The notes under the pieces are model-generated. The model ran no database searches. It was not told where the DNA came from and worked only from the letters and a program-made list of their open reading frames with translations. Shown here piece after piece: positions 4,401-62,509 of a DNA stretch of 64,000 nucleotides; the first letter of the stretch is position 1; each line of letters opens with the position of its first letter. The stretch spans positions 12,824,213 to 12,888,212 of the forward strand of contig OZ234493.1 of NCBI GenBank assembly GCA_965153455.1. The letters run 5' to 3'. The position numbers and the translations under genes are program-made. The stretch is from Sphagnum compactum. Lineage: Eukaryota.

Positions 4401-5039
4401 AGGAAACCCTAAAATTTATAAAAATTATGACAAACCCAACTTCTATTTCTTGGTCTTGGGTTCTGTTTCAGTTGATTCTTAGTACCCCTTTTCTCTTTCT
4501 TTTTCTCTCCCAAGAAGAAGAAAGAGAATGGAACCAAGCTCTGCAGATCAAGGACACTTTCATAACTGCCACCTACGAAAAAGCTCAACAGAACAAAATG
4601 GGGTCCCTAACAAAGCTTGCAAGAGGAACTTAGGTTTAACATGAACATAGGGTTTTGAAGCTAGATTTCCCCATCCACACACATCATCAACAGCGGTAAA
4701 AATGCTAAAAGAGTTCAAAGAGAAGAAAGCCGCCTCATACTTAAATCCCCATCTCAAGAGCAATCTACAAACAGAGAAAGGATGACCACGAATGAGTGGA
4801 GTTCACAGAGATACACAACAAGCTTCCATTCTAAACCCCCTGAACTCCATGATCTACTTCTTGGGCATCCCCAATAATCACAAAAAAAGAGAACCAAAGG
4901 AAAAAAAAAAAAAAAAACCCTAACACCACAACACAATACTTTCCCACCAAGAAATCCAATAACAACAACAGAGCTTGGCATTGGGGTGGAGGACTTAGTG
5001 AATGAAGAAGAAGAAGAAATCATTTTTCACCTTTGCCAT
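1497..5039 (-). CDS. RBL19: Rhomboid-like protein 19 / TMEM115 family membrane protein, 8 coding exons
   Basis: Exons join at GT-AG sites: 5039-5031 (MAK), 4121-3994 (GGAGPFTGFTRLSKGL), ~3429-3369, ~3179-3012 (LLEPFWGSKEFLKFI), ~2697-2589 (GFHGVIAGFLVAVKQIMPDQE), ~2375-2173 (WLYLRYLQRKPE...FFP), ~1894-1756 (PLPGSDPVEANRRR), ~1612-1497 (ERGARALEERL...TAA). Motifs match plant RBL19. The 9-nt first exon is inferred from phase and context. Confidence 0.9.
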
Positions 5040-5499
5040 GATAGAAAGAAAGCAACCCACAAAACCAAAAACAGCAAATCTGTTGTCAGTTTTTTTCCAG
5101 TCACCCTTCCCTTTCCCTTCCTTTCCTTTCCTTCTTTCCTTGTCTGCAAAGAAACCCCAAACTCTCCACAGTCTTCTTGTCAACTCTTTTGAGAGCAAAT
5201 ACTCTAAGAAAAGGTATCAACTTGAGGAACACAACACTACTACTACTACTCCTACAAAATAAGTCAACAACAACAACAACAACAGAATGCAGAAGATGAT
5301 GATGACAAACTTGCCTGGAAAATGGGGAGTTTTCCTTATGAGGATATAAATGGGTAAGTTACACAAGAATTTTTTTAATAAAAAATTGTGTATGTCAAAT
5401 GCATGCATGCATACATGTATGTATGTATGTATGTATGTATGTATGGAGTCCAGGTTACATACATCCATCTAAGTGTTCTTGTTCATAGATGTGAGTGTG

Positions 5500-6230
5500 T
5501 CTGTGTGTATGTGTGTGTTTCTTTTGTGCTCATTTTGTGTACATATGTTGTTGAGTTTTTGTGTGTTTTTTGTGCTCATTTTGTATACATATGTTGTTGT
5601 GTTTTGTGTGTTTTTTTGGTGGCCATTTTCTGTTCATATGTTGTGTGTGTTTTTTTTGGGTGCTCTTTTTTGTGTTTTGTGTGTTTTTTTGGTGTCCATT
5701 TTGTGTTCATATGTTGTGTGTTTTTTTTGGGTGCTCTTTTTGTGTGTTTTTTTGGTGTCCATTTTGTGTTCATAAGTTGTGTGTTTGTTGGGTGCTCCTT
5801 TTGTGTGTTTTGTGTGTTTTTTGGTGTCCATTTTGTGTTCACATGTTGTGTGCTTTTTTTGGGTGCTCATTTTGTGTGTGTTTTTTATGTCCATTTTGTG
5901 TTCATAAGTTGTGTGTTTTTTTTGGGTGCTCCTTTTGTGTGTTTTGTGTGTTTTTTTGGTGTCCATTTTGTGTTCATATGTTGTGTTTTTTTTTTTTTGT
6001 GCTCTTTTTGTGTGTTTTTTTGGTGCCCATTTTGTGTTCATATGTTGTGTGTTTTTTTTGGGTGCTCCTTTCGTGTGTTTTTTTGGTTCCCATTTTGTGT
6101 TCATATGTTGTGTGTTTTTTTTTGGTGCTCCTTTTGTGTGTTTTTTTGGTGCCCATTTTGTGTTCATATATGTTGAGTGTGTGTGTTTTTGGTGTTCATT
6201 TTGTGTTGATATGTTGTGTGTTTGTGTGTG
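5500..6230. repeat. Degenerate T/G-rich tandem minisatellite, units ~45-57 bp, roughly a dozen copies
   Basis: The core GTCCATTTTGTGTTCATATGTTGTGTGTTTTTTTGGGTGCTC recurs throughout. It produces the repetitive Cys/Phe/Val ORFs in the track. Confidence 0.95.
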
Positions 6231-9211
6231 TGTCTTCCCATGATCCATCGCGAACATCTTTTTGCACCAACTAAATCAATAAGTTTTTAACTAAGGTTTA
6301 ACAAAAATAATAGTGTAGTGAATTGTCTTAATGTGAATTCAATTTGTATTGCACATAGATCTAATGGATGTTAACATAACATTCAAATGCAACATGTAAC
6401 TAGGTACACACTTCCATTTTTTGATTCTATGGTTTGTGTGAAGGTTGGACAATGTTTATTTTGCCATTCAACCTTTGTAATAAATCATTCAAATAATGTT
6501 GAACTTGTGTTAGTTTTATGTTTTCTTAACATGTCAAGTTTTATAAAAAGGGGTTTACATTTCATATCAATAATATTTTGAAAAGATTGTAAGGTTTAAT
6601 ACAATTGTTAAACCATCCTTCTGTGGTGGTGGGTGTTCTTGCATCAACCAAAACATCTAATACATTGGACATTCAAGGACTTATGACAAAATGATACAAC
6701 TATGTTATGTACATGATAGTGAAAGTGCTTCAATAACAAACAATTTCAAACATTGAGTTTTTAGACATTAAGTTTTCAACCTTTTAGTACATTTTAGTTT
6801 AATTCAGTTAGTTTGTTTTTAAAGTTTATTGATATTTTCAATTTTTTTTATTCCATATCATCACATTTCCTTTGACAAATAACATAAATTTCTTTTTCTT
6901 CTAATGCATCAAGTTGATTTGCTACAACACATAATTGGACTATTGGAGTTTTTTTGGTCCTTTTATTGTTTACTATTTTATATGGCATTTACAAATAATT
7001 GTCAAAAATCATTATTGAGTTTTTTCATTTTTAAGAATAAGTTTGCTTTTCTAAATTCATTTCTATAAAACAAATTTATAACTCATTTTTGTTATATATT
7101 TATTTATTTAAAATATTTTTCTAGAGGCTTGATGGTTTATAATATATAAGTTCTTAATACTTAATAATTATCTTAATTCATTTGTTTAATGTTAGATTTC
7201 TCTTTAGCTATCAATGCTTGCTTTTCAAATGGAATGGTATTAGGTTCACAATTAATTGACCATGTTTAGTGAAGCAAATTGTCTAAAAATTACACAATGG
7301 GAAAAGCTTAATATGAAAAATGATTAACTCAATTGAACAATGCACATATTGAACATCAAGAACAATTAAATTTTCTAGATAAACGATAAAACAAGTTAAT
7401 TGTGCATTTTATCATCTCTCATAATTTTGTTTGACGTTAAAATAAAAGGCAAAGCCATTATGTGAAATTGTTTGTTTTTTATGTGCACCACCACAATTAT
7501 GTATATTTTTGGAGGAAAATTTTGGCCATATAGGGACCTTAAAAAAATTCCAATCTCATTCATACACAAAAAATTTATTTTAAAAATGGGCCAAATTAAG
7601 TCACCATATTTTGAGGATTTTTTTCCCCTAAAATTACCATATTTAGATGTAAAGCATCACTAGTTTTTACTCTTTGTAGTTTTAGTACCTTCTTTTGGCC
7701 AAATAATTCTTTGACAACCTATTCAAATGACTTCTGTGGGGTGGAAGGTACCTACCAATTTGGCAAAGGAACTTCCACAAATGGGAAGTTATTGGTCGGG
7801 TTTTTTTTTAAACTTTGAAATTAATTTTTTTTCCTTTTGGATTTTTATTTTTTTATTTTAAAAAATGATATTAATTTCATTTAATTAATTATATTATTAA
7901 TATTATTAATTAATTGTATTTTTATTTTTTATTCCATTTTAATTCATTTAATTAATTCAATTTTCCATTTTTCTTTTTATTTTTCTTTTCGTTTTTTATC
8001 ATTACTTCTACAATGTTTTGTTTTCTATTTCAAGGTATGAAAATATTTTTCAAAAGAAACAAAACTTCAAGGCAAAACATATAGAAAACAAAAGTCCTTT
8101 TATTTGTCAAAGTGGCAAAATTACAAATTCAATATCACAAGGTCAAAATAATGAATTTGATGTCATTATGTTAAAATCAAATGTAGAAAGGATTCATAAG
8201 AGGAATCAATTATTGAAATCAAATGTACAAAATAAAAGATTTGTAAGAAGAAATGTTGCACAAAATCAATTCTTTTAGTGTTCACATGTCTTGGATACCA
8301 TTCACCCAATCCCAAATCCCATGAAAAATTATGAAAATAGTTCAAACTTAGAAGAAACAAATTCTAGAAAACCTCCCAACCTCCCCTTTCATGAGCAAAC
8401 ACCATGACAATCCCAAATCGTAACAACCCAAAACAAGACCTTGGGCATTTTCATGGATCCAAGACATTAACCTAATGTTACACTTTTTCCACAACTTTTC
8501 CCCCTAATCCTTTATTATGCAAGTGTTACAAACAAGAATCAAAGTTATAAAATGAAGTTTGTCAAAAATATAAAGCATCCAAAATGAACCAAAATTAGAC
8601 CTTATCTCCTACATTTGATATTCCTAAGGTGGCGAGAGACTTAAGATCAACTACATATGTAATGATAATAGGGCAATTCTGCAAATGGCTAAAGACATGG
8701 TCGAAGGTAGTGTTAACATTAATCATCTCAAGAAGGCAACATAGAAAAATGGTATCCAATTAATCCTTATACTTAGGTAGTTTTTTTTCAAACATGGTGT
8801 TCTAAAATGAATTTTTTGAATCCATTGTAGATCTAGATCTGTCGAATCTATCAATGCAAAAATTTTACAACTTGCACCACATTCTCCTCTCCATCCATAA
8901 AACCAACACCAATTGCACCAGGAACTCGACAGACAATCTTTCCTTAATTTGCAAAACCAATAGTAACATTACAACTAAAAGAAGGAACCCCAATAAGGAT
9001 GTCAAAAAGAGGTCCTCCAAATGCAACAACAATGGAAGAATCATGAACTCGAGGTATAGGAGAACTTCTAGCTACACCATTAAACAAAACACCAATAACA
9101 CTAATAGTATCAAAATGCGTTTTTCCAACAAAATCACTGTAAACCTACAAAATCAAAAATTATATAAGGAAAACAAACACAAAAACAAAAACATAAGACA
9201 ACAAGTCACTT

Positions 9212-11010
9212 ACCTTTTCATCCACCTATTTTAGTCTTTTCATATGCAACCTTCTCCTCGCTAAAAGCCTTTTCAAGATGCAGTAATTGGCTAGATCTGA
9301 ACTCACCAGAAATAATTTGCTACATCGCTCTATCATGTAAATATTTTTAATTTGGTTATACCTACAGAAATAACAAGTTGCCATTTCAGAAAAACATTAA
9401 ACAAATTCTAAAAAAAAAGTTCAAAAATTTACTTGCCACATGAAATAGGCTCCATGGGGCTTGTTACTTCCATACCATACTCATGAGGTACAAGTGCCTC
9501 TTCCATTCTTGTAATTCCAACACCTTGGTCCATCTTATACGACAACATTTTGTCACAAAAATCGAAGAAATCGACAGTTAGCTTGTCCACAATTAGACGA
9601 AACTGGTGACAACTAATAGGAATAGTCATAAACCATACCTCATTAGAAGCCTTCCATTTAGGCTTAGGACGTAGAAACAATAGACGTGGACCTAATTTTT
9701 CACCAAGCCACTAAGATAGACGTTGACAAGCAAGCTTTTTAAAAATCTCAATCACATTAGAAACCAGGCAATCAACTACAAGTTGATGTTGATATGTAGA
9801 ATATTGGATATGTCTATTATCTAGTTTTTAGAAATGCCCTAACAAAACCTTAGAACAATGCCAATAGATAAAAACAACAAATTGAACTCATCAAAATCCA
9901 CATCACAAAGTTCAAAACATCCCCTTATGAAAAAATTCCACAAGTAAAAAATCTTAACCACAAAATTAGGCCAGATGGGGAAATAGGTTAACACATTGTT
10001 TGTGCTAGCATTTGAGAAGATTCCACAATATCTTTAAAACAACAACAATAAATTGTGGAATTTTCACAAATTAATATCTTCATCAAGTGAAAGTTGTTGG
10101 TGATGAAACAACTTTGCAATCTTCAACAACAGGTCTTAATAAAACTATCAAAAAGTCAGATGTTCTACCTATTCAAGAAGACAGCAAAATGTTAGCACAA
10201 TTGTGAAGATTCCACAATCTTTTCGAATTTGTGAAGATATTAAATGGAACAACATGTGCTTGACTTGATTCCATAATTTGTTGTTGTTGCCTTTGCCTTG
10301 TCAAACATCCAATACCTTTTATAGTAAATTGGATATTACAAAAAGAAAAAACAATCAAAATGCAAATAACATGATTTTTGCAAAACATAAAAATTAATTA
10401 GAACAATAAATAATAATTAGAAAGCTAAAAAATAATTAGGTGTAGGGTTTCAAATTTAAGTCCCAAATCATATCAACTACAACATAGAAAGTTGTAGCAT
10501 GCCTTGAATAATTTGGAAAACTTGAAAATAAAAAATGAAAACAAAAAAAAGTAGAAATAAAAAAATGTCATGTTTTCTATAGAAGAAAACCTTGATTAGT
10601 CTTCCAACATAAAAACTACAAAGGCAAAAAATAGTTAAAATGGAAAACAAACTACAAAAAATTATGTACATAGTTTTAGGGTTTGGGAAAATCTCATAAA
10701 ACCTTAAACCTTAAAACAATTGCAAAAATAAGACAATAATTTAATTTAAAACAAAGGTGGGTAGAGATTACCTGGTTGGAGGATATAAGCTACCATCTTT
10801 TTTTGCAACTTGCAAAACAAAAGATGAAAACATATCAACCAAATCCTTAATAGAAGATTCATCCTCTACAAGATCTACGATTGATTTTGTTGTGTCAAGA
10901 CCACAAAAGATCTTCCACTCATCAAATGCATTTTTCGCCCAAAGTTCAACATGCTAGATAATTCTTCGACCTCCTTTGTTTACACTTTCAACTTCCTTCT
11001 CATCAATATG
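9212..11010 (-). pseudogene. Crypton-type tyrosine recombinase remnant with introns
   Basis: Minus-strand blocks in order: LWAKNAFDEW...LVDMFSSFVLQVAKKDGSLYPPT (10773-10950); IQFTIKGIGCLTRQ...FNIFT (10230-10335); SPSGL...FFIRGCFELCDVDFDEF (9880-9985, box I Arg); FLRPKPKW...WF...GITRMEEALVPHEYGMEVTSPMEPISCGK, then intron 9432-9362, then YNQ (Tyr codon at 9360-9358). In-frame stops are present. Confidence 0.8.
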
Positions 11011-11124
11011 CAAAAAATGACTTTTTGGAGGAAGATTTCTAATAGAAGAGTTAGGGCCTTTCCTTTCTCCAATATCAAATATAGTAACAATGAAATCACA
11101 GGTAGTAGTCAACTAACAATCAGA

Positions 11125-11335
11125 TGGACAAGAAACACAAACAAAGGTAGGATAGAGAATGGAATCAAATGTAAAACACACATTAATAAAAGTAAAAGAG
11201 AGAACGGAATCAAATGTAGTAGACGCACTAATAGAGGTAGGATAGAAAGTGGAATCAAATGAAGAAGACACATTGACAAAGGTAGGATAAAGAACAAAAT
11301 CGGATGCAAAAGAAATAACATTAATTATAAAGGAT
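11125..11335. repeat. Imperfect 45-bp tandem repeat, ~4-5 copies, inside the Crypton-like element
   Basis: AAAGGTAGGATAGAGAATGGAATCAAATG-like unit recurs at about 11143, 11188, 11233 and 11278. Confidence 0.8.
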
Positions 11336-12618
11336 GCATAAAAAAAATTGAAAAACATGAATTCAAAGGAATATCATACTCATCAAGGTTTAAAGAAATC
11401 TAAGGATAAAATATATGACCAAATAAATTGGGATTACATTTAAGAGGAGAGAACACATGAAATTGATAGACATTTTTAATGAGAAAACAAGAATCAATAA
11501 ACAATTCATTACTACAACAATAATCAACAAAGATGTCAGAACCATCAGTTGACCACATTAATTTACAAGCATCAGAAGTAAAACCGAAAGGAAGGCTAAC
11601 AAAAGGACCACTAAACATTATACAAAAACACAAAACAAGAGGGAAAGAATACTTCACAGGACAATGCTCATGGTTGCAACCACACAAACATTTGTGCCAT
11701 AAAAATACACAATAAAATTGAACTCCTGATTTTGCAAAACAAAACAAAGCGACATTAAAATCAATGCACACAACAAAACAAACAAAACTTGTAAGAAAAA
11801 CACCAAGGTATACATCCTTGCAAGACAAAATCACACGTGTGATGTTTGTGAGGTTACAATCACAAGATTGAGAAACCTGCAAAAAACACATAAACACATA
11901 AATTAGAAATAACACAAGTTGCACCAAAAAAAAAAAAGATTCCATGTTGTAGAAGAATCAACACTGTAAGAACAATTGCAATGCAAGAACATTTGTGATA
12001 GAAAAAATCAACGATGCAAAAGCAATTATGATGCAAGGACATTTGCGATGTAAGAATAATTGTAATGTAAGAACATTTGTGATGCACCAGAATCAACAAT
12101 GTAGGAGTGATTGTAATGTAGAAACACACGTGATGCACAAGAAGCTACAATTGAACAAAACCCATGGAAATCGTGCAATGAAACATAAACACGACTACAA
12201 TATTGAAACCACAAAGATAAACAACCACAAAGATAAACCCATAGCACAATGGAGCTGCAAGAGATGTTGAGTGAAAATTTCGCAAAGAAGCAACAATACA
12301 AAACAACAATAATATTGCTCTCACAACCAAAAACAAAGATGCAACACCAAGAGAGCACAAAATTCGAAGACAAAGAGACGATGCAAATGATAGAATGAGC
12401 AAATCGAAATGAACTTTGTTCCAAATTCAAAACCTTTTGCATTGTGGGATTTGCTTTTGCAAACATTGTGCGATCCATTTTTGGCAAAAGCGATGCAAAG
12501 TACTTCCCACTTATGGTGAAACAATGAGGGCCGTGAGATGATCGAATCCGACGGTGGAAATGTGATGACAAACAAGAGTCGTTGATCTTATGATCTAAAA
12601 AAACAGATGACGCTTTCC

Positions 12619-12733
12619 ATAGGTGAAGGGCATGTGTATGGGACCTTCCGGATTTTCGACGCTGACCCTTGGCCTCTTGGCCTCGGGCAGGATCTCAAAT
12701 CCGGAAGGTCCCATTCACAGGCCCTTCTCCTAT
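12619..12733. repeat. Inverted repeat / hairpin with 37-bp arms (34/37 paired) and a 41-nt spacer
   Basis: ATAGGTGAAGGGCATGTGTATGGGACCTTCCGGATTT (12619-12655) versus AAATCCGGAAGGTCCCATTCACAGGCCCTTCTCCTAT (12697-12733). Confidence 0.95.
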
Positions 12734-14365
12734 ACAATAATAGGTTGTAGCTGGTCCCCAAAATTTAGCAGAATTCTTAAGTTTTCCTCACTTTCCTATC
12801 TGAAAATAGCCAAATTTGGCTAATTCCTCATGTGGATAATTGCAAGCGTAGCCACATCCACCCCCCTCCCCTCCCACCCCAAAAAAAAAAAGAAAAAAAG
12901 AAAAGAAAAAAACTGTGCTGATAATTTCTTGTGTTTTGGGCAGACCAATCACCCGAAAAGAAAATAACTATGATCTAAAAAAGTGCACTAGTTAGCTTTA
13001 TTTTGTGCACTTTTTGCACTTTGCACGCCCAGGGAAAAAAAATAAAATAAAATTACAGAAAAGTGCAAAAGTGGGCCGGAATCTCAAAATCTTCAGCCCG
13101 TAAAAAAATATTTAAAAAGTTTGGGAAATTGGTAGCCGATTTTACTACGTGGCAAAACCTGAAAAAAATGTTTTTGTTCGGGGACCACCCATCACGGGCA
13201 CGAGTCACATGGGCAGGGGGCGAATCTCGCAAACGCCCCGCGATTTCTCGACAGGTCAACAATCCTTATTAGCCTCTTATTAAACTAATATGGCCATGGC
13301 CCACAGACCAAGGACCGCAAAAACCGATTTGGACCAATCTGAGATTGCCACCTATGCCTTGGCCGACAGGCCGCAAAGGGAAGGGCAGAGCGCCATTGTC
13401 GCCGGCCCTTTCCTTGGCCATGGCGATGGCGCTACGAAGCTTTCACTTGCACCCGGAGCTTGAGCTTTGCGGTTGTTTCCGCAGTAATCAGATCCAGAAC
13501 TGCGCTGCACGCGAGAGGAGACACTCTTTTTTTTCAAAGCTCCTTAAAAATCTAAGCTCAAGGAGCTATTTCCGGTGCGATTTGTCCTCGTAGGTCGCTT
13601 GTTTCGGTTTCGGAGAAGAAGATCAGATGAAGAGGCTGTGATTTTAGAAGAAGAAGAAGCAGCAGCAGCAGCAGTGGTGTTGTTTTTGTTGTCATTACAG
13701 TAACCTAGTCTGGCCGTGAAGGAAATTGCGTGGTTTCTTGATCGGATGAAGGATATTTGCGAATTTGCAGCGCTGTGAAGAGCGCCCTGGTGAGTCGCCT
13801 CCCGTGCCTGATCTTCCGTTTGTGAAGCCGGCTTTTGCGCTGTTTTATCTTTTGAACTCAAGCTTTATCAAATGATGTTCGGGTTGTTTTGCTCATTTTC
13901 TAGTTCCAGTAGACTTCTTTGTACCGTGAAAGGTTTTTGCGGGAACCGAAGAACAGAAGAGCTGAATGTATGAGCCGCCGGTGTGCTGCGCCAATGTCCG
14001 TGCAATCGTGTGTCTAGTGCAGAAAAATCAAGCGAAAGACGAGCTCTAGACGTAGATCGGTTCTTTTCTTGTGGTTTGGAGTGAAAAAATTGATCACATG
14101 TGTCTGAATCTTCTTCCATCAGCGAGGTCTTTCTTGTGTCCGCCTTTGTGCATTCTTTGCTGGTGAGAGTAGTCTGCTCTGGCTCATGCGTTTGGATAGT
14201 GAAAGCCCCTGAGAGCCAGAATCGGTGATCGACAATCCTTTGATTTTCCTTCTGACGTTTAGCTGCAGTGTCTGTCGTAGTGGATACCGGAGCATAGCTA
14301 CGTCCGCTCGCTACTTTTGCAGAAGAAGCTGCCGGGCCAGACTTCGTGCAGGAAGGATCGCGAAC

Positions 14366-20640
<6,275 letters not shown>

Positions 20641-25443: not shown

Positions 25444-31422
<5,979 letters not shown>

Positions 31423-37014: not shown

Positions 37015-38699
37015 TTAACCTTGCTGTTTTCTTCTTTATCGTGAGAATGGAGATTTCTCTTTTCTTATGAAAGATATTTGATGGGGCTCCTTGATTGGCC
37101 TATTATTACACATGGTTTTAGTTGTTTCTCTGGCTTTTCATTTGGCCTACGCATGGCTAGCAGAGTATAACTTTGGGCAAAGAGTATGAGATAGATGGTG
37201 GGAGCATCGTAAGTTCATACAGGATGGAATTCTATTTGGAATGTATTAGGGAACATAATCAAAGACATTTGATAACAGGAATGTGCATGGACACAAGTTT
37301 GGAACACATTGACCCACACAACTACACATTTCTCTAATCTAAATTTGATCCTTCTACTCACCTTGATAAGTGATTTCTCAACTGGATTTAGAGTGTCAAC
37401 AACTAACAATTGTGTATACGCAGATGAATCCTTGTGGGGTCAAGTAAGGTTGAGGGTAAATGATGTTGGGAGAAATTGTAGGTCTACAGGATATACTTGA
37501 GAAGAATTGCCCACCATTCTGAAGTTGTATATGATGGAATAAGCAATTTTAATATGGTAATTCCTTTCCTTCTACAAATGTTAGTGCCTTTTTGGGTCTC
37601 TTTCAAATAAGCAAGTACTACAAGCCCTTTTGCCCCATTCAAAGATCCAAATGTCCAAATGGTTCACCGGGTCCATTGAATGCTCGTAATTGGATGCTCT
37701 TGGGCATTTTTGCACAATGCGTTTTAGGTGTTTTAGATACCCTGGGCTTTGGTCAAGCGCTGTGCCTTCACCCTTTGCTTCAATTTCGTGAGCATAGCGA
37801 AAATTGAAATACTTGTTTTTAGGGATCCTGGTTTTTTTGTTATCTTGGTATGATTGTTATTAAGATTTGTCGTTCAAAGAAGACACTGTGATACTCCATT
37901 GGAGTCTTGCCAAACACACTCGGGCTAATATCCCACTTACATCTCACGTTCACAAATTATAAATAAATAAATTTTTTTCTTTGTTCAATTGTGTCTCGAA
38001 GACATGGTTGGGTATTGCCCATGGGTTGGCTATTCCCTATGACTCCCTTTCACAACAAGCTATGTTCTCCATTGGAAGTTTGTCTCATTGGGTGTCTCTA
38101 GTAGTATATCTATTAGATAATTTATGCTCGTGTTGTTGCAGACTTCTAACACGTCTCATTTGTTTGACACAAATGAGCACTTTATTCGGTGACTTTGCGA
38201 TCACCCTCAATAAATCATTAACTACTATAATAGGCAAGCTCAATAACAAGGACTAAACAAGCATTGATAATGTATCTTTGATATTCTTAATTGCCAATGC
38301 TAAACATTTTGGACTTGGATGTTCAAGATGTTTGAAGTCTATGTGATCAAGCATAGGTTTTGATGCAAACCATGCCCATGGTTATAGAGAACCCAACACA
38401 TGATGTTATTACTGCATATAAAACAACGTTTGGTCACATGGACTTTAGCTATGATAATTCTCATAGGGATTATGTTTACTTGTAGGAATAGCCTATAATA
38501 TTGGAGTGAAAAATCAAATGTATTAGCTTCTAATGGAGGGATGTGCTACTAAGTAGCAATTTACAACTCATGTGGAAGAATGGATAGGAATGTTTATGCA
38601 CTTTAAAATAGTTGTAGTCCCACTTCAGTTCCCTTGTTTTAAGGGTTGAGAGAAAACAAGGTTAACAACCATGTTGTGTGACATGGGTAGTGTATTTGA

Positions 38700-41600
38700 A
38701 ATGGTATCAATTTATTACCTAATAATTTATCTCAATATAAGTCATTAAACATATATTAGGGTTTTAGTGGTCAAACTTTGAATAAGGTTTTAGTTACTTG
38801 TGTATTGATTTTAGATATATTAAATTTTTATTACATATTTATGGTTTTATTATGTTCCCCAAAATTAATTATAATTGAAAAGTGATGTTAGATAAGAAAA
38901 AGATATAAAACTCTTGAATTTCATTCAGAAATTGAATCATCTTTTTATTTGTAATATCCTCAATTTGTTCCAATTGCCATCCTCAATAAAATTCATCAAT
39001 TGTGTAAAATCATAATAGTAAAACTTGGTTAAGGATTGATGTTATTTTGATTTGTTGCTTCTATTTTCTTAATTAACCTTTTTTTTTTCCTTTTCGTTAC
39101 ATTTTAGTTTGATTATTTGGTCCACGTATTGTAGATTTTCCATTCTAGCTTACACATTGCATTCAAGTCTTTTAACCAATGTTATACTTTCATTGAATTA
39201 TTGTTAATGGTAAACATTTGAACATAAACTTTTGTTTGATCGTTTTTTAGTTTTTTTTTGTCTTGTTATTTGATATTTCCAAAACCTTTTTAAAAAAAAG
39301 GAATGCCATGTTAATGTATTGTTGATATTTTTCCCATGTTTTCTAATTTCTTGGCAACTTCACATATAAGCAAACATGAATTGAAAAATACTTGTTTTTC
39401 ACATTGGTTTTGTGGAAACAAGATTAAGAAAATAAACTATGAAAGGATTAAAATCATATGTTTAAACCTTTCTAAGGGTGCGCAATGAATGAATGAAATG
39501 TCAAAAAATGCATGGGCATTTCCACATATTTTATTATAAATGAAAAAAACATTAATAATGGGTGTTAGGTGTTATGGTTTTTTGTTTGATGTGTCACATT
39601 AATTATTTTCATTAATAGGGCATTAACCGATAATATCCACAATGCCATGATCTATTTATTGCAATATCATAATACCTTTACCATTTCGGCAACAAATTGT
39701 TGAATAGTTATTTAAATTTGAAATCTCAACTTTGGCACTTGGTTTTTTAATTTTGAAATTTTTGGCAATTAATGGTTATTAGATTTTATTTTATTTTAAA
39801 TGTTTTGTCCATGCTATGAAGTAATCTAATGTGTCTAGATTACCTTTGGTTATAAGTCATTATCATGGAAGGTCTATGGTTCAAATCTTGACATTTGAAC
39901 TTTTAAATTTATTAAGAGTTTGGCACAAATAATGAATAGTTTTTCAAAATTTTGGCAAAACGAAAAATAATTTAATTCATGCTGAAATGGTAAAGGTATT
40001 ATGATATATGATTTTTTTTGGAAAAAACATTTAAGTTTAAGTTTTTTTTGTTCCAATGATGTTTGTTATGTTAGATTGTGTTTTTTCAAAGATTTTTTTT
40101 TTTCTTTTGGTTGAAATGATCAATTATTTAAAAATTAATCCTTATGTCATAACATAAAAGTTTGACCATTTTACTTGCATTATGTCTCATGTTGCATAGA
40201 TTTTTATATATATATATAATAAAATATGTTAAGTACTTCATTACTATTGATTCATTGGTTATGGATTGGAAGTGAAATTTATTGTTTGGTTGATAAATTC
40301 AATTTTATTCAAATTGAACTTTGTGTGATGAAAAGAAAGTTGAACCTCTTCAATTACAGATTAAATGTGCATAATTTTAAGTGAAATCATTAATGCATAT
40401 ATGAATATGAAATCCAGAATAAGTTTCAATATTGATTAAAAAATCTTTCAGTAATTATAAATTTAATGAAAAGGTTTAATAACATGCTTGACATTTATTT
40501 TCAATACAAAGTTTTTTTTTTAAATCATCTTTAAAAATGATTAATATATTTGATTGAATACATTCAATGTATTGAAAATGATATATAATATGTGTTTTGA
40601 ATGTGATTTGTTATTGCACAGTTTTCAATTTTACACTACACATTTGATTACAAAACTTCTATGGATCGGAGATGGCAAGTGAACGACATCGCCTATGTAA
40701 CTTTCTCGTCCATAAAGTTCTTTCACACCTCCAAACAACCATTCAAATGAATCATCTTTGGCAAATTTAGTATGTAACATTTTATGCTCAAATGCATTAA
40801 TACACATTTTTCGAACATGAGTGGATGTTATAGAGTGAATATACTATACGTTTGAAATTTGAAGGTTTGACCTAACTAATGAACCTCGTGATGAAAAATA
40901 TATATTTCGGAACTTTGGACCAAAATGATTCAATTCAACTTTGAAAAATCATTTACAATACAAAAAATGTGAGTGTTGGTGTTTAATGATAGCCCTAATT
41001 CCATTAAATGAAAATAAATGTAATTTTGTGTTAAAAAATACCAAGCAAAAGTTCCTTACTAATAATGAATCGATTCAAATTATTTTACGATTATAACTAA
41101 AATACCAAAAAAATTGCAAGCAATATTTGTAATGTTATGAGAAAAATCAAAATTATTGTAAATTATTTTTATAGGCAAGAACTAGCAACTTCACTGAGGC
41201 CCAAGAAATTTTTTGTCCAACATGTTGTGTGATTACACAAATGATTAATTCCATAGCTTTGTTAAGGAAAGTGAAGAGGTTGATCATACTATACATGGAT
41301 GGGATTTTATTGTAGGGATTGATGTCATTTTTGTTTTGAATACTTCACATGAAAACATGAAAGTTAAAATGGGGCTCCTAAATTTGATTGAGCACAAAGA
41401 ATTACAAAGAAATGTCATACTATTGCATGATGAAAAGATTGTGATGTTGTTAAAAACATCACTAGTATGTACTACATTACACATAAGTGGTCCTTGATTT
41501 TAAGGATTTGGAATTGTTTTATAGACCTTTACACTTCAACACTTTCTTGTTGTATGAGTTTTGAGCTTGCAAACACAATCATAAGCAAATTATATCATTC

Positions 41601-42347
41601 AAGTTGATTTTTCACTTGATTTCATTCATTGAATTTTTTACACATTAAACATTTCACTTTTCATTTATTTTGATTTTTGCAGATTGATTATTATGTTTGT
41701 TTCATTATAAAAAAATTTGTGTTTATGTTATTTACATTTATATAATTATATTTATCCAAGAAAAAAATTATAATCTTTTCATGTGTGTTTCTCATCAAAT
41801 CACACTTACACATTTGGTGTATAGTTATAATTTTTACAAGTTTATTTATTTGATTAATTATATATAAAGGCTTATAAATATATATGTTTAATAATTAAAT
41901 TTATGCCCTTATTAAACATTAATATAAGAAACCTTCAAATATTCAATTATAAAATCAGAATGTAAGAAAAATTATTTTTTTTAATATTTGGCAAAAAACA
42001 CATATAAGGTTTATTATGAAAAAATCAATTATTCAAGTATTCAAATAATCTTTTATTTTAAGTGATGCATTTTAATGAAAATCTATTGTCCATTTCGTTT
42101 ACATTTTAAATTTAGTTGAAATCTATTATATATATATTTATTTATTTATTTTAAATGTCATTAACCTAATGTCAAATAAATCAACATATTACTAAAAGAA
42201 AATAAAAAGGTGAGCAAATGTTAGTGAATATTAATTTTTCATCCTCAATTCTTATGCTATTTTTTTTTTTGACAAAACTTTCATCACTCATGTTGCACTA
42301 AATATATATATATAAATATATGAAAGACGATTAAAATGAAAATGTTA

Positions 42348-42385
<38 letters not shown>

Positions 42386-45300
42386 TTATTTTTTAAAGTG
42401 TGACATAATGTATTGTCCATTAATATCATGCAAATTTTATTTTATTTTAATTTTAAAAATGTTATTTGAATCATGTAAATAATGTTGGTTAAAAATGATG
42501 ACAATGGCATTCAATTTTTTAAAACCCCCTAAAAATAAACCATCAACTCATGATTTTTCTTCACATGCACAACATAAATTATCGAGTCATGATTCTTCTT
42601 CACATGATTTGCTTCTATTGATTGTTTTACAATTGATTTGTTTGAATTTATTTTCCTTTCGTTGTTTGTCATATATATTGATTGAAATTTGTTAAATTAT
42701 GTGATTTCTTAGTTTAGCGTCGCAAAAAAATTCTATAATTTCTTTTTTCGTTTTTTGGACATTTTTAAGGTTTAAATTAGGTTTTTGTGAATTGTTTGTT
42801 TTATCGATATTCAATTGGTTATTTCAACCTCAACTTAAAATGTTTATTATAAAATTTAAATGTTTAAAACATTATAACACATATGTGTAATACCAATGGC
42901 ATCAATAGACATGTGTTTTGTATGTGTGCTACAAGCTTCATAAAGGTTATATGAAACATTAAAAAAAGACAAAAAACATTGGTATTATATTGGATCACAA
43001 GATGTGTCAAACACCTTTTCTTCCCATGATTGTCACCTTCTTTTTATTTTGTTGTCCTTTTACAACAATTGTTGTCAACATTGTTAAACATAAGCTAACA
43101 ACTAGCAACTTGCTATGAGGTAGTCACAAAATTCAAACTAACCACAAACAAATCACCAACCACTAGTTATGAACCGTTGTTTTTCTTCTCATGATTGTCC
43201 TCCCTTGTTTCTTATTTTGTTTTCCTTCTATAGAAGCTCCTAGTAGGATTGTGAACCAACAAGCCACCAACCAACAAACAAGTAAAAACTAATCATTAGC
43301 CAACCACAAGTTAGCAAATGTTAACCAACGAAAAGGTCCACTTTTCACTTTTTGTGTGTTTTTTCCTTCTTGTTCTCCTTCACTTTTCCTTACTTTTTTT
43401 TCTCCTTCGATGGCAACAACATTTGTTTTTTTCCCTTTTCCTTTTATTCCCATGATTTTCCCTTCTTTCTTTTATTTTGTTCTCCTTTTATAACAAATGT
43501 TAGCAACATTGCCAATCACAAGCTAATAACAAGCAACTTGCTACGAGCTAGTCACAAGCCATTAGCCACATGTTGCCAACTATGAGTTTCAAGCTAATCA
43601 TGAGCAAACCATCAGCTAGCCATTATCCAACCAATATGTATTTTATTTATATGTTGATTAACAATTGTATCAAAAGCTAATGAAAATATTTAAAGCACCC
43701 AACACATGCCCATTAAAAATATTGTACACCTGGCATATACTTGTGATAACATTGAGCAATGTAAAAATTAAGTCTTATTGTTAATCCAAGGTGTAAGGTT
43801 CAATTCCCTACATTCTCAATATCTATTTTTTCATGATTTTGGTACCTTTTACATTAGAAAATTATTATCATCTTCATAATTTTTATTGATCTATGCTTAT
43901 TTGTAGTAATGGAAAACATATTCAAATCAAAATAAATATTATATTTTCAAGTTATCTCAAACATTATTTTAAATTTGTTTTTGGTAGTTTCAATGAATCA
44001 ATTAATGAAGATATCAACGATTAATCCTACACAATTACAATGACGTATATTATTAATAATTATTTTTATGTTGTAGATGTTTTGTGATGTATATTAATTA
44101 AAATTATGTGTATTTATACATATTATTCCTATTTAGTTCATAATTTCATAGGCTTATTTTTACTTTATACATTGACATTCTTATAATTGAGTTTATATGA
44201 TGTTATGTCATGAATTGATTTTGTAATTGTTCATCACATAATCATGCATTTGCCACATTACGATGAATTTCAAAATATAAATTTTTTGAACATTTATTGA
44301 TATAATTCATATTGAATATTTTTTCATTTAAAAAATATTTTTTCCTTTTGAATTAGTTATCATAAAATCACAAACCAATTTTTAAAATTTCATATTTTTT
44401 TAAAGATTTATTCTTATAAACAAAAAAAATTCATATCAAAATATTGGATCAATCTTAAATTTTTAAAAAACAATAACCTTAAGTAATTTCTATTTTGTTA
44501 GTTAAAAGTAACAAATTTCTCCACTTGTGAACAATGTATAAAAAAATTTAATGGAATTTTTCATAATCATTAATTATAATTTTTGATTAATTTAGTATGT
44601 TTAAATAATTATGTACATGCAAATGCATGAAGGGCATTTTAGAAAACATCAATAGAATTTTCAAAAGTGAATGTGACTAATAATAAATCTTCTTACTAAT
44701 TTTATATGTGTTCATGGAATAATTAGATGTTATTGACTACAACAAATCAATAGTTCAAATATAGGTGATCATATGTTAATTTATGAAAGGAGTTTTTTTT
44801 TAATTTATTAAAAAATGAAAAAATTGTAATGACAAAAATAAATTATAAACAATAGTATATTGAAGTTATTTGAACCTTCCCTAATTTTATTTCACGATTT
44901 AAATCTTTCATAATTTTATTTTATTTTGTTTCATTTGAGTATTTTGTAATCTTGAATTACTTATGTTGCCATTGTTTATTTTGTGATATAATCGCCATGT
45001 ATTTGTAGTGGTCATCTCGTAAATAATTCATTTAATTTCAAAAAAATATTAATAATTCAAAATAAATTTTTCATTTATTGTTTTATCCATATATTAACAT
45101 AAATGGGAATTCACATGTGTTTAAATGAAATTTAAATGAATGGTTAACATGCGCCAAAAAAAATTAAAATTAAGATTATATTGCCAAACAATATTTCAAT
45201 TTTCAATTTTTCTTGGAAAGGTTAATAAAACCAAACCTTAATCAAAATTTGTGAAGCTATAAGAAAACATTCATGTATTCAAACCTTTCTACATCAATGT

Positions 45301-47800
45301 GTAATATTATTCAATAGTTGTTTTGATATTCATTGTGTATTTTTTATTATTATGATAAATTAATTTAACATTCAAAGTTTAATTCTTAATCGAATTGATT
45401 AAAGATATTTTATGATGTGTAAACTTTGCAATATATCAACTTCCCCATATTTTGAAAATATTTTGTTGCACATTGGATAATCAAAACACATAAAAAAAAG
45501 TGTAAGTGTCAAGTTTTGTTTTATTTACTTTCATAATGACTGCAATGCATTACGAATATAAATAAATAAATTTTCCAAGGATTAAATTTTGAAAACGAAA
45601 AACATATTTCTCTAAGTGCAAAAGTTAATTACTAGTGGGTGTATCTTACTTGAATGTTCATAAAAACCTAGATAACAATGACATGCGTTTCATTGTGTGC
45701 TTACAAAAAAACGAGTTATATATTTTTAATTTACACAAGTGTAATGAAATCATGTTTATACATTTTTTTACACATTTTTAGATTGGGGCAATGTAAAATT
45801 AAACACAAAGAAAAAAACCACATTTTTGGCCAAAATATGATGTGAAATTAAAAACACACAATGGAACAACATTCGTGTTTAGGATTGACATAATTTTACA
45901 TTGCACAATGAAAAATTGATTAGGAACAATGTATGGGATAAATGGTTTTTAGAAAAGTTCCATTTTCGATCATTTTATAAACTTGAAGGTTTTTAAGTAA
46001 ATAATTGTTTTTCATGTAAAAGTAATTCTATTTTAAATTTAACAACCACAAATTGAGGGTTCATAATTTTATCTCTTACATTTGAAAGGCTTGTAAATTA
46101 AGTAAACCAATGTTTTGTGTCTTTATTTAAGGTTGTATGGATTTTATTTTTTTATAGATTTAATTCCAAATATGAATTTCATGTTAAAGAGCATCCATCA
46201 AGAAATGCATTGCAAAAGATATTTATAGAACATTTTTGCACCCGTGGAAATTATGCCATTGGAAATGAATTGGATTTTTTATAGCATTATTTACACAAAG
46301 CATGAAATTTTGTGTTGTGTATGGAAATCTTTCAAAGGGAAAAAAATTGTTATGGAAAATATGGATGGATTTTTTTATATGTTTGGACATAAGTGATTAG
46401 TAATATGATTGTATTTTTTTCTTGTGTCAATTTATAGAAGATGAAAAAATTACATTTCATAGAAATTTAATCTCGGCACATATATTTCTTTTTTAAAAAG
46501 TGTACATATTTTTTATAATGAATGTTAAGTTATACAAGCTTGTAATCATAGAAATAAACACATGAACAAATAATGTAACCAAATCTTTTGCTTGTAAAAC
46601 TTGTCATCTTTAGTGCACAAGCTGGAAACATTTAATTTCTTTTCAAGTGAGGATTTAAAATGAATTCTAGCTTTTAGCTCCTCTTTAATTGACATAAAAT
46701 GTTGTTGAACAATAGTAGTTATTTGAAAGAAGCCATCAATAACATTAAATTCACTTGCAAAACCAAGAAGTGGGCTAGAAAAAACCTATTCTAGGTTCTC
46801 AATGTTGGGTAATTGTTCTTGCATTAAGCACTTATATGTAATTGTCTTTCATTTCTTCCAACGGAGATAACTTTTTTTGAATTTTTTGAACCATATTAAC
46901 TTGGGTTAAACCCACTTTTTTTTTAAAAAAATTATGTGGCATTAATGCAAGTATCTTAATATGGCCTTCACAATTACCAAGTTATCTATTCATGAAATAA
47001 TTCAAAACAAAACAAAATAAGAATGAAATGTGGCAATTATTGGAATGAAAATGTGAAGGTGTTAATATTTCTAAATGGGCAATAACTTCAACATGCTTTT
47101 AATTTTTTTAATTAATTCATAAAATAAATTCAAAAATTAACCTTTCCTACCCATTATGATTATGATTAATGTTGGATGGGTTTCATTGGGACCTTCGTTT
47201 TGAAATCAATTCTCACAATGAAATTTGACTAATATCACATTTTTATCCTTCCTATTAACCAAGTACATATGTTGTAATCTAGGGACAATTTCACCACATG
47301 TCTATGAAATAACTAGTTAATTTTGCAGATTAAATATCAAATAATATATTGAAAAAATATTCCCAAAGTTTTTTTTATGGTTCTTTGTAAATTTTTGTTT
47401 GTTGAAATATGTGAATTTACAACATTTCTACAAAATAATTATAACCCCGTGATCAGGGAAAAAAACTCTAGATTAATTGAAGGTTATTTAATGTCAATTC
47501 AAGAATTTCATATTTGAAAGTAATGATTATATTTGCATATAGTGATATTTTCTTTCCCATTGCAAGCAAATTTTGGTTAATAAGTAGACACCTTATCATT
47601 TAAGCTTATTTTCCTATAAAAATACCATTCACATCATTAGTCTTTTTATATTTCTTGCAATGCCACACAACTAGAAAAGGTCTCCAAGGCATAAGACCAG
47701 GTAAAAACTTTAATACACTAATCATTACTAATAACAACATACACAATGATAAATTTATTTAACATAGGAAACACCTTTTTTTTGTCAAGACCATTTTTTG
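38700..47800. other. Very AT-rich, CpG-poor intergenic block, probably decayed transposon debris
   Basis: Almost no ORFs of 60 aa or more, long A/T runs, (AT)n at ~42351-42381, and dispersed degenerate repeats at ~43021, 43185 and 43447. Confidence 0.6.
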
Positions 47801-47885
47801 GATGGAATATACATGTTTTTGTGAAAGGTTAAGTAAAGTTGAGTTCATATTAATTTTCAAAAAATGTCATAAAAAGACTTTTGTA

Positions 47886-50800
47886 CCCTTGATCAACAAG
47901 CCAATGAAGTAGGCCTGTAATGACATTCTTTGTTACAGAAAAACATGAGAAAAGGCAATTTGGCTACACGGGCCGAGGATCAAATCTTCTTAAAACACAT
48001 GCTACTATATTTATCACTACCTCCCCATTCTTGTATGCACACACCTACACACAAATTTTTATTAAAAACTATGCAGCTTAAACTTCATAGCATATGTCCT
48101 TAACCCTTTACTCCAATTGAAATGTAATGGGTGTGTGGATTTATTCAAGTAGAATTTTTTTTGAACATTTCCAATATCTACTGATCATTACGCATCATAA
48201 ATACAAAACAAATATCTTTTGAGGGTGACCATCTTTACCCATATTTTTTGAGACAATTTTATTTGGAAGAAAACACTAAGCCACACTTGAACCCCAAGCA
48301 CTTGTTGTTTGAGCCCCAACTCCACTAAAAGTTCCCAAAATTTTGTTTTAGTTGAAGAGTGTGAGGGGGTGTTACAAATCCAACTTGAGATTTCCAGCAT
48401 GCATCCACTTTTCACTACATTGCCACTACACAGCCATGTGAGAGTAATCAAAATCAGCACAAATTGTTGTAGGGAAACCTTCTTAGAGAGTGAGCAATTA
48501 CATCACAATGTAGGGCAAAGTTGAGTCAGGTGGTTAAGTCCTATGACTCAACTAATCAATGGAAGACTGCACCATGAACAAAAAGTCTTATTGGGGCAAA
48601 TAACCAAGAAATCTTTAGGGAACCTAGGTGGACATCCCTTCTATACCATGTGCAAAAAATGAGACCACTACTATAAATCACTCTTTAACTTAACATGTCC
48701 AAGGACACAAATTGAATGCACCATTTACAGATGATCTTGTCCTTCAAATTAAGTTTGAAACTAGTCAACATGTTGCATGTACCAAACAATCCATTTTGCT
48801 TGCTTGGGTGCAAAGAAAACCACAATCTTCCTGCAAGATGAATTATTATCCTGGTTGTCACTCAGTCTTTACTATGCATAACATCTAACCCTTCCCCAAG
48901 CTGAAAAAAACATACCTACACAAAGCCATTTTTGCAAAGGGATGCATAACCTCAAGATACACAATTCGAGCACCAAGCAAAGATGATAGACCTACAAGCA
49001 TTTTTGAAAGGAAGAACACCTTGCTTGTTAAAGAAATACAACTAATGTAATTGTGATGCGCAACCATTATATTGAAAAACATTGTATATATTTCTATGTG
49101 AAAATAAGTCAAGTGTGGCCCTGAGCATAAACCTATAATTAGTAATTGTGAGTCATTAACTGCGTAGTAGATCCAAAACTTGCATGAAAAACACAATATT
49201 TCCAGGAAAACCATCCGCATGCTCATCACAATACAACACAAAATAGTTCCAAATTTGTAGTGGCAATATATGTTGGCAAAATATACAAGACAAAAGTCCT
49301 ATAATTTCATAAACATAAGGACTTGTAGCTACATAGATGTTTTGTTATCACATGGGACTTTAAGGAGCAATTTATAGAGAGTAACTTCAAGCAAATTAGT
49401 TGAAGGAAGTTTTATCAACAAGGAGAATGCATGAACAAAAAATAGTCCCTTATTATAAAATACTACTTTTGGCATAACCTATATCAACTTAGGGTGGTAA
49501 ATTTCCATTTCAACTTTTTGTTATATTATAGCCAACATTGTAGCATAACATACTACATGGCAATATCTCCTGGAAAGAATATTAATTAGGTCTTGATGTA
49601 TTGACTTGGATTGAAGAGTTCACGGTGGGTGTGCAAAGTATGTTCCATGAATGCCCTACACAAATTGTTCAACTTTGTTCTCTTATTGCAATTGAATTCA
49701 CTAGATATCTTCATGAAGACAATTTAAGTCAAACTGGAAAAAGTTGAAAAATTTATGAATATTTCAAATTGGACATCAAATCGGCAACAATTGGCAAGCA
49801 TAAAAAAGAAACCTTTCATTCAAGAAAAGTGAAACAAAACCACGAGATATAATGAACAACAACAATGGTCATATGCATGTTCCCAAACCTTCAACAACAA
49901 CATGTATGGTAGTGACCAACTACCTTAACAACCCCACTGACTTCATCAGTTCTTGGCAATGAGTCAAACACTAACCATCAAACTGAGTTTTTATCACAAG
50001 ATTGGCAATAATAGGAAAATTTAACCATGATGCTAGCTAGTTCAACAAACCTTTAAGAGATAAAAAAAGACCAAGAGACCCAAGAGGAAAAAGGACAATA
50101 GAAAGGAAAAATGCCAAACAAAGAAAACTCAAAACAAGAAAAAAGAAAGAAAAGAAAAAACAAAATGAACTTGAAAACTTTGAAATAAAAACTTTAGAGG
50201 ATAACAAAATGCAATTCAACAAACATGTGAAGGTCATCATACAATTGAAAACTAAAGTGTGGATTGAACAACACATTGGATTCCTATGAAGACTTGATGC
50301 ATTTTCTTCCTCTTTTTGCTTGTCCTAAAACCGTTTCATACATTCATTTCTTTCCTTACTCCACTTATCCATATCTTTTTGCAACCCATATTCATGAACC
50401 AAAACAAGAAGCCCACTCAACCTTGAAATTATTACAGCAACTGTGACTAAATTATGGAATCTTATAAGCCTCCTTTAGTCATAAACCAATAGAATGTGAC
50501 CAAAATACATTTGATTCTATAGCCAAAGGTTTGTGTCAGATGATTAATTATTTGTGGGACAATAAACCTTGGCCAAGTCTTAAAGACCTCACAAAAGGTA
50601 AACACCAAAAAATTGGTTAGTTCCACACATTTTTTCTGGTCGCGTCTCCATGTGCTCAAATGCAAATGAACCATGAATGAGACATGTTGAGATGTATATA
50701 TCTGTTTTCTAGAGTAATTTTAACTAAAGAAAGAAAGTAAAGTTGTAGAAAGTTGATGTGACATAATTCAAAAATCTTCTTCATTTTTGCAACATTTTGT

Positions 50801-62400: not shown

Positions 62401-62509
62401 CCTCACTAACAGCTTGCATGGCACCATTCCGCAAACTTGCTTGCTGGAAAACTGCCATCCTCTCCACTGCCGAAGCACACCAGTGTTGCGGGAGCCATCT
62501 GTATGTCAT
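59460..62509 (-). CDS. DPD1: DPD1-like DEDDh 3'-5' exonuclease with long N- and C-terminal extensions, 3 exons, ~874 aa
   Basis: Exons 62509-61314, 61013-60805 and 60679-59460 total 2625 nt and are in frame. ExoI VFDIETTG, ILEFACRDLAGG..STMQTLVNP, ExoII VAHNGRGFDVPF, ExoIII HRAAVDV. The start codon used is uncertain. Confidence 0.85.

Follow-up and report, generated by a model that had tools for sequence, protein, structure and literature searches.

A decayed transposon copy with a probable Crypton/DUF3504-type tyrosine recombinase gene in Sphagnum compactum DNA

Cryptons are transposons that carry a tyrosine recombinase only; they lack both terminal inverted repeats and long direct repeats, and they end in terminal direct repeats of 4-6 base pairs (bp) (PMC3212892; this paper, like the others cited below, is represented here by excerpts). 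The Pfam domain DUF3504 is derived from the Crypton recombinase (Kojima & Jurka 2011, PMC3212892). In the excerpts of that paper, Cryptons are recorded from fungi, oomycetes, a diatom and animals; the sole plant in the species key is Chlamydomonas, and no land-plant Crypton appears. A more recent account describes Glomhopper, a group of DUF3504-encoding CryptonA elements of Glomeromycota, and calls DUF3504 proteins "widespread in Opisthokonta" (PMC13465315, 2026). For land plants, the excerpted parts of a review of transposable elements never name Crypton and give DIRS elements as known only from green algae (Mhiri et al. 2022, PMC9033089). Here we analyze a 64,000-nucleotide (nt) stretch of DNA from Sphagnum compactum (contig OZ234493.1 of assembly GCA_965153455.1, positions 12,824,213 to 12,888,212 of the forward strand), which we refer to as the window. 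We conclude, with a probability of roughly 0.8, that the window holds a decayed copy, about 5 kilobases (kb) long, of a DNA transposon family whose sole recognizable gene is a Crypton/DUF3504-type tyrosine recombinase. What is new is the host group, in which Crypton/DUF3504 elements are not catalogued; the kind of element is already known.

The locus resembles Cryptons, especially the DUF3504-related CryptonA elements of animals, in that its only recognizable gene is a tyrosine recombinase with introns, in its length of a few kb, and in having no reverse transcriptase (RT), no terminal inverted repeats and no long terminal direct repeats; the kinship is read through the Pfam DUF3504 match of its relatives. 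It differs in that the family is apparently hosted by plants, in having Lys where the His of the HxxR motif is expected, and in a conserved palindrome of about 115 nt at one terminus. Set beside Glomhopper, by description only, it again presents a transposon-borne DUF3504-type recombinase, with introns in some copies and with most copies truncated or decayed; Glomhopper is fungal and keeps its His and Tyr in the excerpts of its account, whereas the window copy has lost the His. Boundaries and repeats are described there as hard to define, whereas the boundaries of the window element can be defined and its terminal repeats cannot be demonstrated. An earlier note on this DNA had stated that Cryptons do not normally figure in the repeat catalogues of land plants. 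This is only partly right; the excerpts of the land-plant review, which do not name Crypton, speak for it (PMC9033089). Our own literature search, from which Repbase Reports and the supplements of papers were left out, found no paper on a plant Crypton/DUF3504 transposon family.

The evidence begins with the coding blocks. Reading the stop-to-stop frames of the minus strand between 8800 and 11500, we located every recombinase block that the earlier note had listed, each at its claimed place. WAKNAFDEW and FVLQVAKKDGSLYPP lie inside the stop-to-stop open reading frame (ORF) 10768-10953, and FFIRG is at 9934-9920. The ORF 9429-9710, which encodes a block of 93 amino acids (aa), holds LFLRPKPKW (9680-9654) followed by WF (9635-9630), GITRMEE (9518-9498) and GMEVTSPME, of which TSPME occupies 9464-9450. 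Two blocks go beyond the earlier note: IQFTIKGIGCLTRQRQ, at the start of the large exon at 10335, which aligns by tblastn with residues 73-96 of a protein from the liverwort Riccia fluitans (P0096; P numbers are our handles for related proteins), and VVDCLVSNVIEIF..., at 9779-9714. When the blocks were compared with the window by tblastn, the recombinase proved to be present in a single copy.

Searched against 1.84 billion representative proteins, the 93-aa block has 89 matches at an expectation value (E) <=1e-3, 21 of them at <=1e-10, and its best relative, P0011, is 82% identical (E 1.2e-31). A 61-aa N-terminal block has 10 relatives, with E between 3e-23 and 4e-7. As scored by these searches, the similarity of the blocks is far above chance. 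Three of the 89 matches (P0062, P0072 and P0092) carry unrelated repeat-rich families; they were judged spurious and excluded from later alignments. Most of the relatives found are short ORF fragments that end at splice sites, and the named ones are three hypothetical proteins of Riccia fluitans (P0096, P0090 and P0114). A profile search among longer proteins yielded no full-length relative, and scans of viral and prokaryotic contigs yielded no relative.

It is through these relatives that the gene can be given a family. When 88 members were scanned one by one, DUF3504 was the sole family to recur, matching five of them: P0082 at 31.7 bits (E 2e-7), which lies above the Pfam gathering threshold of 29.7 bits, P0068 at 26.1 bits (E 1e-5), P0029 at 22.2 bits (E 1.6e-4), P0071 at 20.8 bits (E 4.2e-4), and P0096 (E 2.4e-3). 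The E values that link the window exon to P0082, P0029 and P0068 run from 1.2e-4 to 2.4e-11. P0068 and P0090 resemble the C-terminal third of Phage_integrase (E 0.007 and 0.026), and in the scan of the 88 members H2TH and Phage_integrase had one match each. As a lead only, the Atlas (ESM) places Riccia P0096 beside DUF3504, Phage_integrase and QRICH1 clusters, with a score of 0.92. Taken together, transitive homology through the relatives supports the assignment of the window gene as a predicted tyrosine recombinase. The matches of single blocks to Kgd4-YMR31 (E 0.012) and zf-P11 (E 0.14), and the one H2TH match, we take to be chance.

The better-kept relatives read ..NK(T/S)GRxxGITRMEExxVPxxxGMxxTGHRDxKSYxKY, with nine residues from the His to the second Tyr (GHRDxKSYxKY). 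Nine residues is also the His-Tyr spacing of Cre, XerD and lambda Int. The spacing in the relatives thus points to the Tyr encoded just after the second intron (TAT, 9360-9358) as the catalytic one, and bears out the earlier note, which had taken the Tyr restored across that intron to be catalytic. In addition to this codon, the window copy retains the box I Arg (9925-9923, in FFIRG), the hairpin Lys (9829-9827, in GISKN) and the Lys of the KxxR motif (9536-9534). The second Arg has become Gln (9527-9525) and the His has become Pro (9458-9456). An intact catalytic set, for which the earlier note had proposed a check, is accordingly absent from this copy, in which the HxxR position reads K..Q. 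Among the relatives, P0068 and P0082 keep Arg, His and Tyr, and P0090 keeps Arg, His and the tail ..KY. P0068 is a better-preserved relative, with Arg and His retained and a tail reading ..SFKKY. Members of its cluster, P0100 and P0101, occur letter-for-letter on 17 and 15 contigs, respectively, in IMG data, and such identity hints that the family to which they belong is younger, was perhaps active not long ago, and resides in a different organism.

Mapping of the relatives onto the window and DNA alignment of the copies indicate a recombinase gene of about 480 aa in three exons (Table 1). For exon 1, tblastn aligns P0003 with 11196-10771 (E 2.5e-44), P0001 with 11106-10774, and residues 26-71 of Riccia P0096 with 10917-10777 (E 3e-10). 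Splicing of intron 1, with the junction AG|T, would give LYPPTS-IQFTIKGIG, which matches LYPPVS-LQGLFRGIG in Riccia P0096. The earlier note had proposed a 71-nt GT-AG intron that restores the Tyr codon, and this proved exact to the base: the donor is GGCAA|GT, whose G is position 9432, the last position of the acceptor AG is 9362, and the G at 9361 completes the Lys codon that precedes TAT. Among 10 distinct copies, one of them the window's, the donor of this second intron is GT in seven and AT in three; the acceptor reads TAG|G TAT in six of the seven copies in which it falls inside the 110 nt inspected, and TGT in the seventh. On these alignments, intron 2 is a feature of the family that is kept in other copies. 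Exon 3 is represented by residues 240-274 of P0096 and residues 191-225 of P0114, both from Riccia, which align with 9340-9239, and the TGA at 9220-9218 may be its natural stop. The segment beyond it, listed in Table 1 as a candidate exon or conserved 3′ part, has an open frame and DNA conservation with one distant copy alone (L015, over 9101-8960; L numbers are our handles for loci); it has no protein homology.

The coding part lies within a larger repeat, 7651-12735, that was not part of the earlier note. A pattern scan of JGI metagenome contigs returned 22 loci, with 50-69% protein identity, that collapse to 14 distinct loci. When window positions 5000-16000 were compared with the 22 loci by blastn, matches were confined to 7642-12737. 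Four junctions that are independent of one another define the 5′ end (GTATAGGAG.., 12735), namely those of the window, of L001/2, of L003 together with L005/6, and of L008; three, the window's included, define the 3′ end (..GTGCTTT, 7651). On each side, roughly 1.5 kb of non-coding DNA falls within the boundaries, and between locus groups the flanks are otherwise unrelated; L003 and L005/6 have common flanks on both sides, which indicates a larger duplication. Identity to the window copy is 79-81% for full copies and 64% for L008. With sharp common ends, dispersed loci and differing flanks, the repeat behaves, as judged from these alignments, as a mobile element. Its homologues occupy 14 distinct loci whose flanks are unrelated, unlike single-copy syntenic genes.

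At one terminus the element carries a large palindrome (Table 1). Folded as single-stranded DNA, it has a predicted energy of -45.7 kcal/mol (z = -11.4), and its equivalents in L003 and L008 have z = -5.4 and -7.0. Across four copies, six of 41 predicted pairs stay paired through two-sided changes. The palindrome is kept in divergent copies and lies within 4 nt of the 5′ end; there is none at the other end. We speculate that it could be a cis site of the recombinase. Such a terminal palindrome is not described for Cryptons in the excerpts of PMC3212892 or PMC13465315. A screen of 7400-13000 for repeats linking the two ends of the element revealed no long terminal repeats, inverted terminal repeats or split direct repeats, only low-complexity A/T runs. 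Immediately ahead of the element, the four independent 5′ junctions read (A/T/G)TTG; the three 3′ ends read (C/T)TTTA. These motifs are AT-rich and very short. Purine-rich and poly-A/G tracts (GGGGTGGGAGGGGAGGGGGG and A/G-rich runs) occur at 12740-12920, immediately outside the 5′ end.

Table 1. Predicted features of the transposon copy (window positions; strand as read)
Feature	Position	Strand	Remarks
Whole repeat unit (transposon copy)	7651..12735	-	5,085 bp; limits from blastn and terminal motifs
5′-terminal palindrome	12619..12733	.	About 115 nt; 49-nt arms, 17-nt loop, 84% complementary
Irregular 17/50-nt repeats, 5 copies	11945..12134	.	5′ non-coding part
45-nt tandem repeats, about 5 units	11073..11342	.	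Immediately upstream of or overlapping the start of coding homology; P0003 aligns through part
Exon 1	about 10772..11196	-	N-terminal domain: ..FLHIDEKEVESVNKGG.., WAKNAFDEW, FVLQVAKKDGSLYPPT; start codon unassigned
Intron 1	10336..10771	-	436 nt; GT donor 10771-10770; acceptor AA in window, TAG in L002
Exon 2	9433..10335	-	Remaining N-terminal part and catalytic domain
Intron 2	9362..9432	-	71 nt, GT..AG; phase 2, within the Lys codon preceding the catalytic Tyr
Exon 3	9218..9361	-	Tyr codon TAT 9360-9358; C-terminal tail ..RAM*QIISGEFRSSQLLHLEKAFSEEKVAYEKTKIGG
Candidate further exon or conserved 3′ part	8947..9144	-	After a GT..AG interval 9213-9145; uncertain

Past selection can be read from the ratio of nonsynonymous to synonymous change (dN/dS) in the 93-codon block, estimated by the method of Nei and Gojobori. 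Of 66 pairs of copies, 54 were computable, and dN/dS was 0.12-0.39 in every pair with dS>1, values to be read with the shortness of the block (93 codons), the protein-guided alignment and the saturation of dS in mind. Close pairs gave ratios near those of neutral change (window and L002, 0.97; L003 and L005, 0.91). The low ratios between distant copies suggest that the recombinase was once under selection, and constrained distant copies together with neutral close ones would form the pattern expected of active lineages whose inserted copies decay.

The window copy itself is, on the state of its reading frames and residues, dead: a fossil without present function. The earlier note had called it a dead copy, and the stops, frameshifts, lost splice acceptor, inversion and two replaced catalytic residues all agree. 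There are five in-frame TAG codons, four of which stand at sites where relatives carry Gln. At the three in exon 2 (9841-9839, 9823-9821 and 9713-9711), P0011 has Gln and reads through without stops; at the one in exon 1 (10956-10954), relatives have Lys; the last is at 9322-9320. At least two frameshifts are present, near 9821-9810 in exon 2 and between 9358 and 9340 in exon 3, and the intron 1 acceptor is lost (AA, where L002 has TAG). Within the catalytic exon, a 130-nt segment (10071-10200) has the opposite orientation to its counterparts in L003, L005 and L008. At its borders stands a 23-26-nt motif in triplicate (10009-10034, 10047-10071 in inverted orientation, and 10198-10223), which is missing in the other copies; the interval 10009-10223 looks like a small inversion or a template-switch rearrangement. 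We also considered a GC-to-AT bias from methylation-driven decay, but found no clear bias: of the 207 window-specific changes, 67 are C>T/G>A, 79 are T>C/A>G, and transversions make up the other 61. In the 14 distinct loci elsewhere, the equivalent of the 93-aa block contains in-frame stops at 12; at L010 it is frameshifted, and at L012 it is open but altered.

Could the element be something other than a Crypton-type transposon? DIRS and Ngaro are, besides Cryptons, the main tyrosine-recombinase transposons of eukaryotes (PMC3212892), and the locus might be the remnant of one of these retroelements, or of some other larger recombinase-bearing element, whose remaining genes were lost. The tyrosine recombinase of these elements is related, and a circular intermediate is believed to figure in their transposition; they differ in possessing RT and RNase H, together with either split direct repeats or inverted terminal repeats plus an internal complementary region. 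The window element shows none of these. Among 143 ORFs of at least 50 aa, taken from both strands of the window, L002, L003 and L005 (four full copies), none matched RT, RNase H, integrase or transposase, and the sole Pfam match (Asp1, E 0.0084) is not credible. RT and RNase H do turn up among 150 ORFs of at least 75 aa around the more distant copies, but only at L010 and L016 out of the 14 distinct loci. At L016, RVT_1, RT_RNaseH, Integrase_H2C2 and rve occupy 10792-13067 on the opposite strand, exactly where the recombinase copy breaks off; at L010, the element is in two halves, one of which is inverted, and RVT_1 and RT_RNaseH (6020-7363) lie in the gap that separates them. The position and strand of the RT and the presence of rve in L016, and the split halves in L010, point to nested insertions of the Ty3/gypsy type, so that no RT or RNase H belonging to the element itself adjoins the recombinase. 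The introns, moreover, belong to the repeated DNA and hold their positions across copies, whereas copying through RNA would tend to remove them. The lack of RT in four full copies and the introns within the repeated DNA argue for a Crypton-type DNA element rather than a DIRS element, and descent from a DIRS/Ngaro-type or other larger element seems to us very unlikely.

We regard it as very unlikely, too, that the locus is a pseudogene from a host (domesticated) DUF3504-type gene family spread by segmental duplication. In animals, most DUF3504 domains have been domesticated and have no catalytic activity (PMC3212892), the relatives in Riccia carry gene-model annotations, and the common flanks of L003 and L005/6 indicate that some copies spread by larger duplications. 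The domesticated animal genes (KCTD1, KIAA1958, ZMYM2-4, QRICH1 and WOC) do share this Pfam domain and likewise lack catalytic residues that were once present, but they are conserved single genes under selection, whereas the window element belongs to a large set of dispersed copies in decay. Sharp boundaries at 14 loci and in the window, which include some 1.5 kb of non-coding sequence to either side, with flanks otherwise unrelated, are at odds with a duplicated host gene, as are the in-frame stops in the stretch examined at 12 of the 14 loci and the frameshift or alteration at the other two; neutral close copies and constrained distant ones are the usual pattern of a transposon family. Lastly, a fragment of a recombinase gene might have been captured and spread by another element, for instance a Helitron-like one with a terminal hairpin. 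Plant Helitrons capture intron-containing gene pieces, and the large palindrome, which comes to within 4 nt of one end and has no counterpart at the other, would suit such an origin. All full copies, however, carry the whole recombinase gene rather than a fragment, the gene shows purifying selection between subfamilies, the ends of the element are not of the TC...CTRR form that marks Helitrons, and the ORF scans found no Rep/helicase in any copy. Capture is, in our judgment, highly improbable. A Crypton-type DNA transposon is the reading that we retain; it is the one put forward in the earlier note, and it is supported by the DUF3504 match of the relatives, the dispersal of the homologues and the absence of an RT of the element's own.

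Several observations weigh against this reading. The earlier note had expected a match to a recombinase or DUF3504 profile, and what holds for the relatives, with P0082 above the Pfam cut-off, does not hold for the window exon alone, which reaches only 12.1 bits against DUF3504 (PF12012; E=0.21, profile positions 126-160 of 162) and misses the gathering threshold. The N-terminal and box I blocks match no credible Pfam family. A search of the PDB with the family profile gave no match by sequence. AlphaFold2 models of P0068 and P0029 are poor (predicted local distance difference test [pLDDT] 69.4 and 60.5, predicted template modeling score [pTM] 0.27-0.28), and Foldseek, given the P0068 model, returned no recombinase, only one meaningless match at E 4.1. 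Where classical recombinases have the His of HxxR, almost every family member has Lys, and this residue, K59 of the 93-aa block, is (near-)invariant. A search with Riccia P0096 recovered one further Riccia protein only, and no full-length named relative. The case for a spliced gene is built from sequence, namely from conserved GT..AG sites and the restored reading frame. Cryptons are expected to end in direct repeats of 4-6 bp, which are not demonstrable at these AT-rich junctions, and to this can be added the limits of the dN/dS estimates given above. None of the copies at the 14 distinct loci looks intact, and these loci are metagenome contigs of related sources, not the window's own genome.

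If the family behaved as the published Crypton model has it, the recombinase of active ancestors would have excised them in circular form, and the circle would have been re-inserted by site-specific recombination, without reverse transcription. The enzyme would have relied on the Arg of box I, a Lys in the beta-hairpin, the Lys-x-x-Arg pair, the His and the Tyr.

The DNA around the element contains other recognizable features. Of two long open frames, the one at 29268-30362 on the plus strand matches the RNA-binding domain of poly(A) polymerase (PF04926, E 4.8e-7), and the one at 61310-62518 on the minus strand matches an RNase_T exonuclease (PF00929, E 4.2e-9); these host-gene domains place the transposon fossil in gene-bearing DNA. 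An Atlas search with the poly(A)-polymerase-like ORF led to unrelated JmjC clusters (score 0.81), PDB searches with the two host ORFs were uninformative, and Rfam and tRNA scans of the window found no match. The interval 38001-48000 is very AT-rich, with a GC fraction of 0.22-0.29 compared with 0.40-0.48 in the adjoining DNA.

We would venture, as a tentative and somewhat doubtful extension, that land plants (a liverwort and the lineage of the window at the least) harbor a DUF3504-type Crypton lineage of their own, as yet undescribed, with a Lys-x-x-Arg variant of the catalytic motif and a palindrome that serves, folded or as a duplex, as its recombination site. Such a lineage may be active in some bryophytes, and it may have been exchanged horizontally with arbuscular-mycorrhizal fungi, the hosts of Glomhopper. 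Since the termini can be defined here, as is rarely so for Cryptons, the palindrome is a concrete candidate for a recombination site.

The window locus is only a fossil, and its value lies in the family to which it belongs. Land plants have been regarded as lacking tyrosine-recombinase transposons. A plant family whose ends are defined, whose introns are conserved and which bears the mark of past selection would add a recombinase mechanism to the plant repertoire, would provide repeat annotators with a model for sequences that are now unclassified, and would extend the DUF3504/Crypton lineage past animals and fungi.

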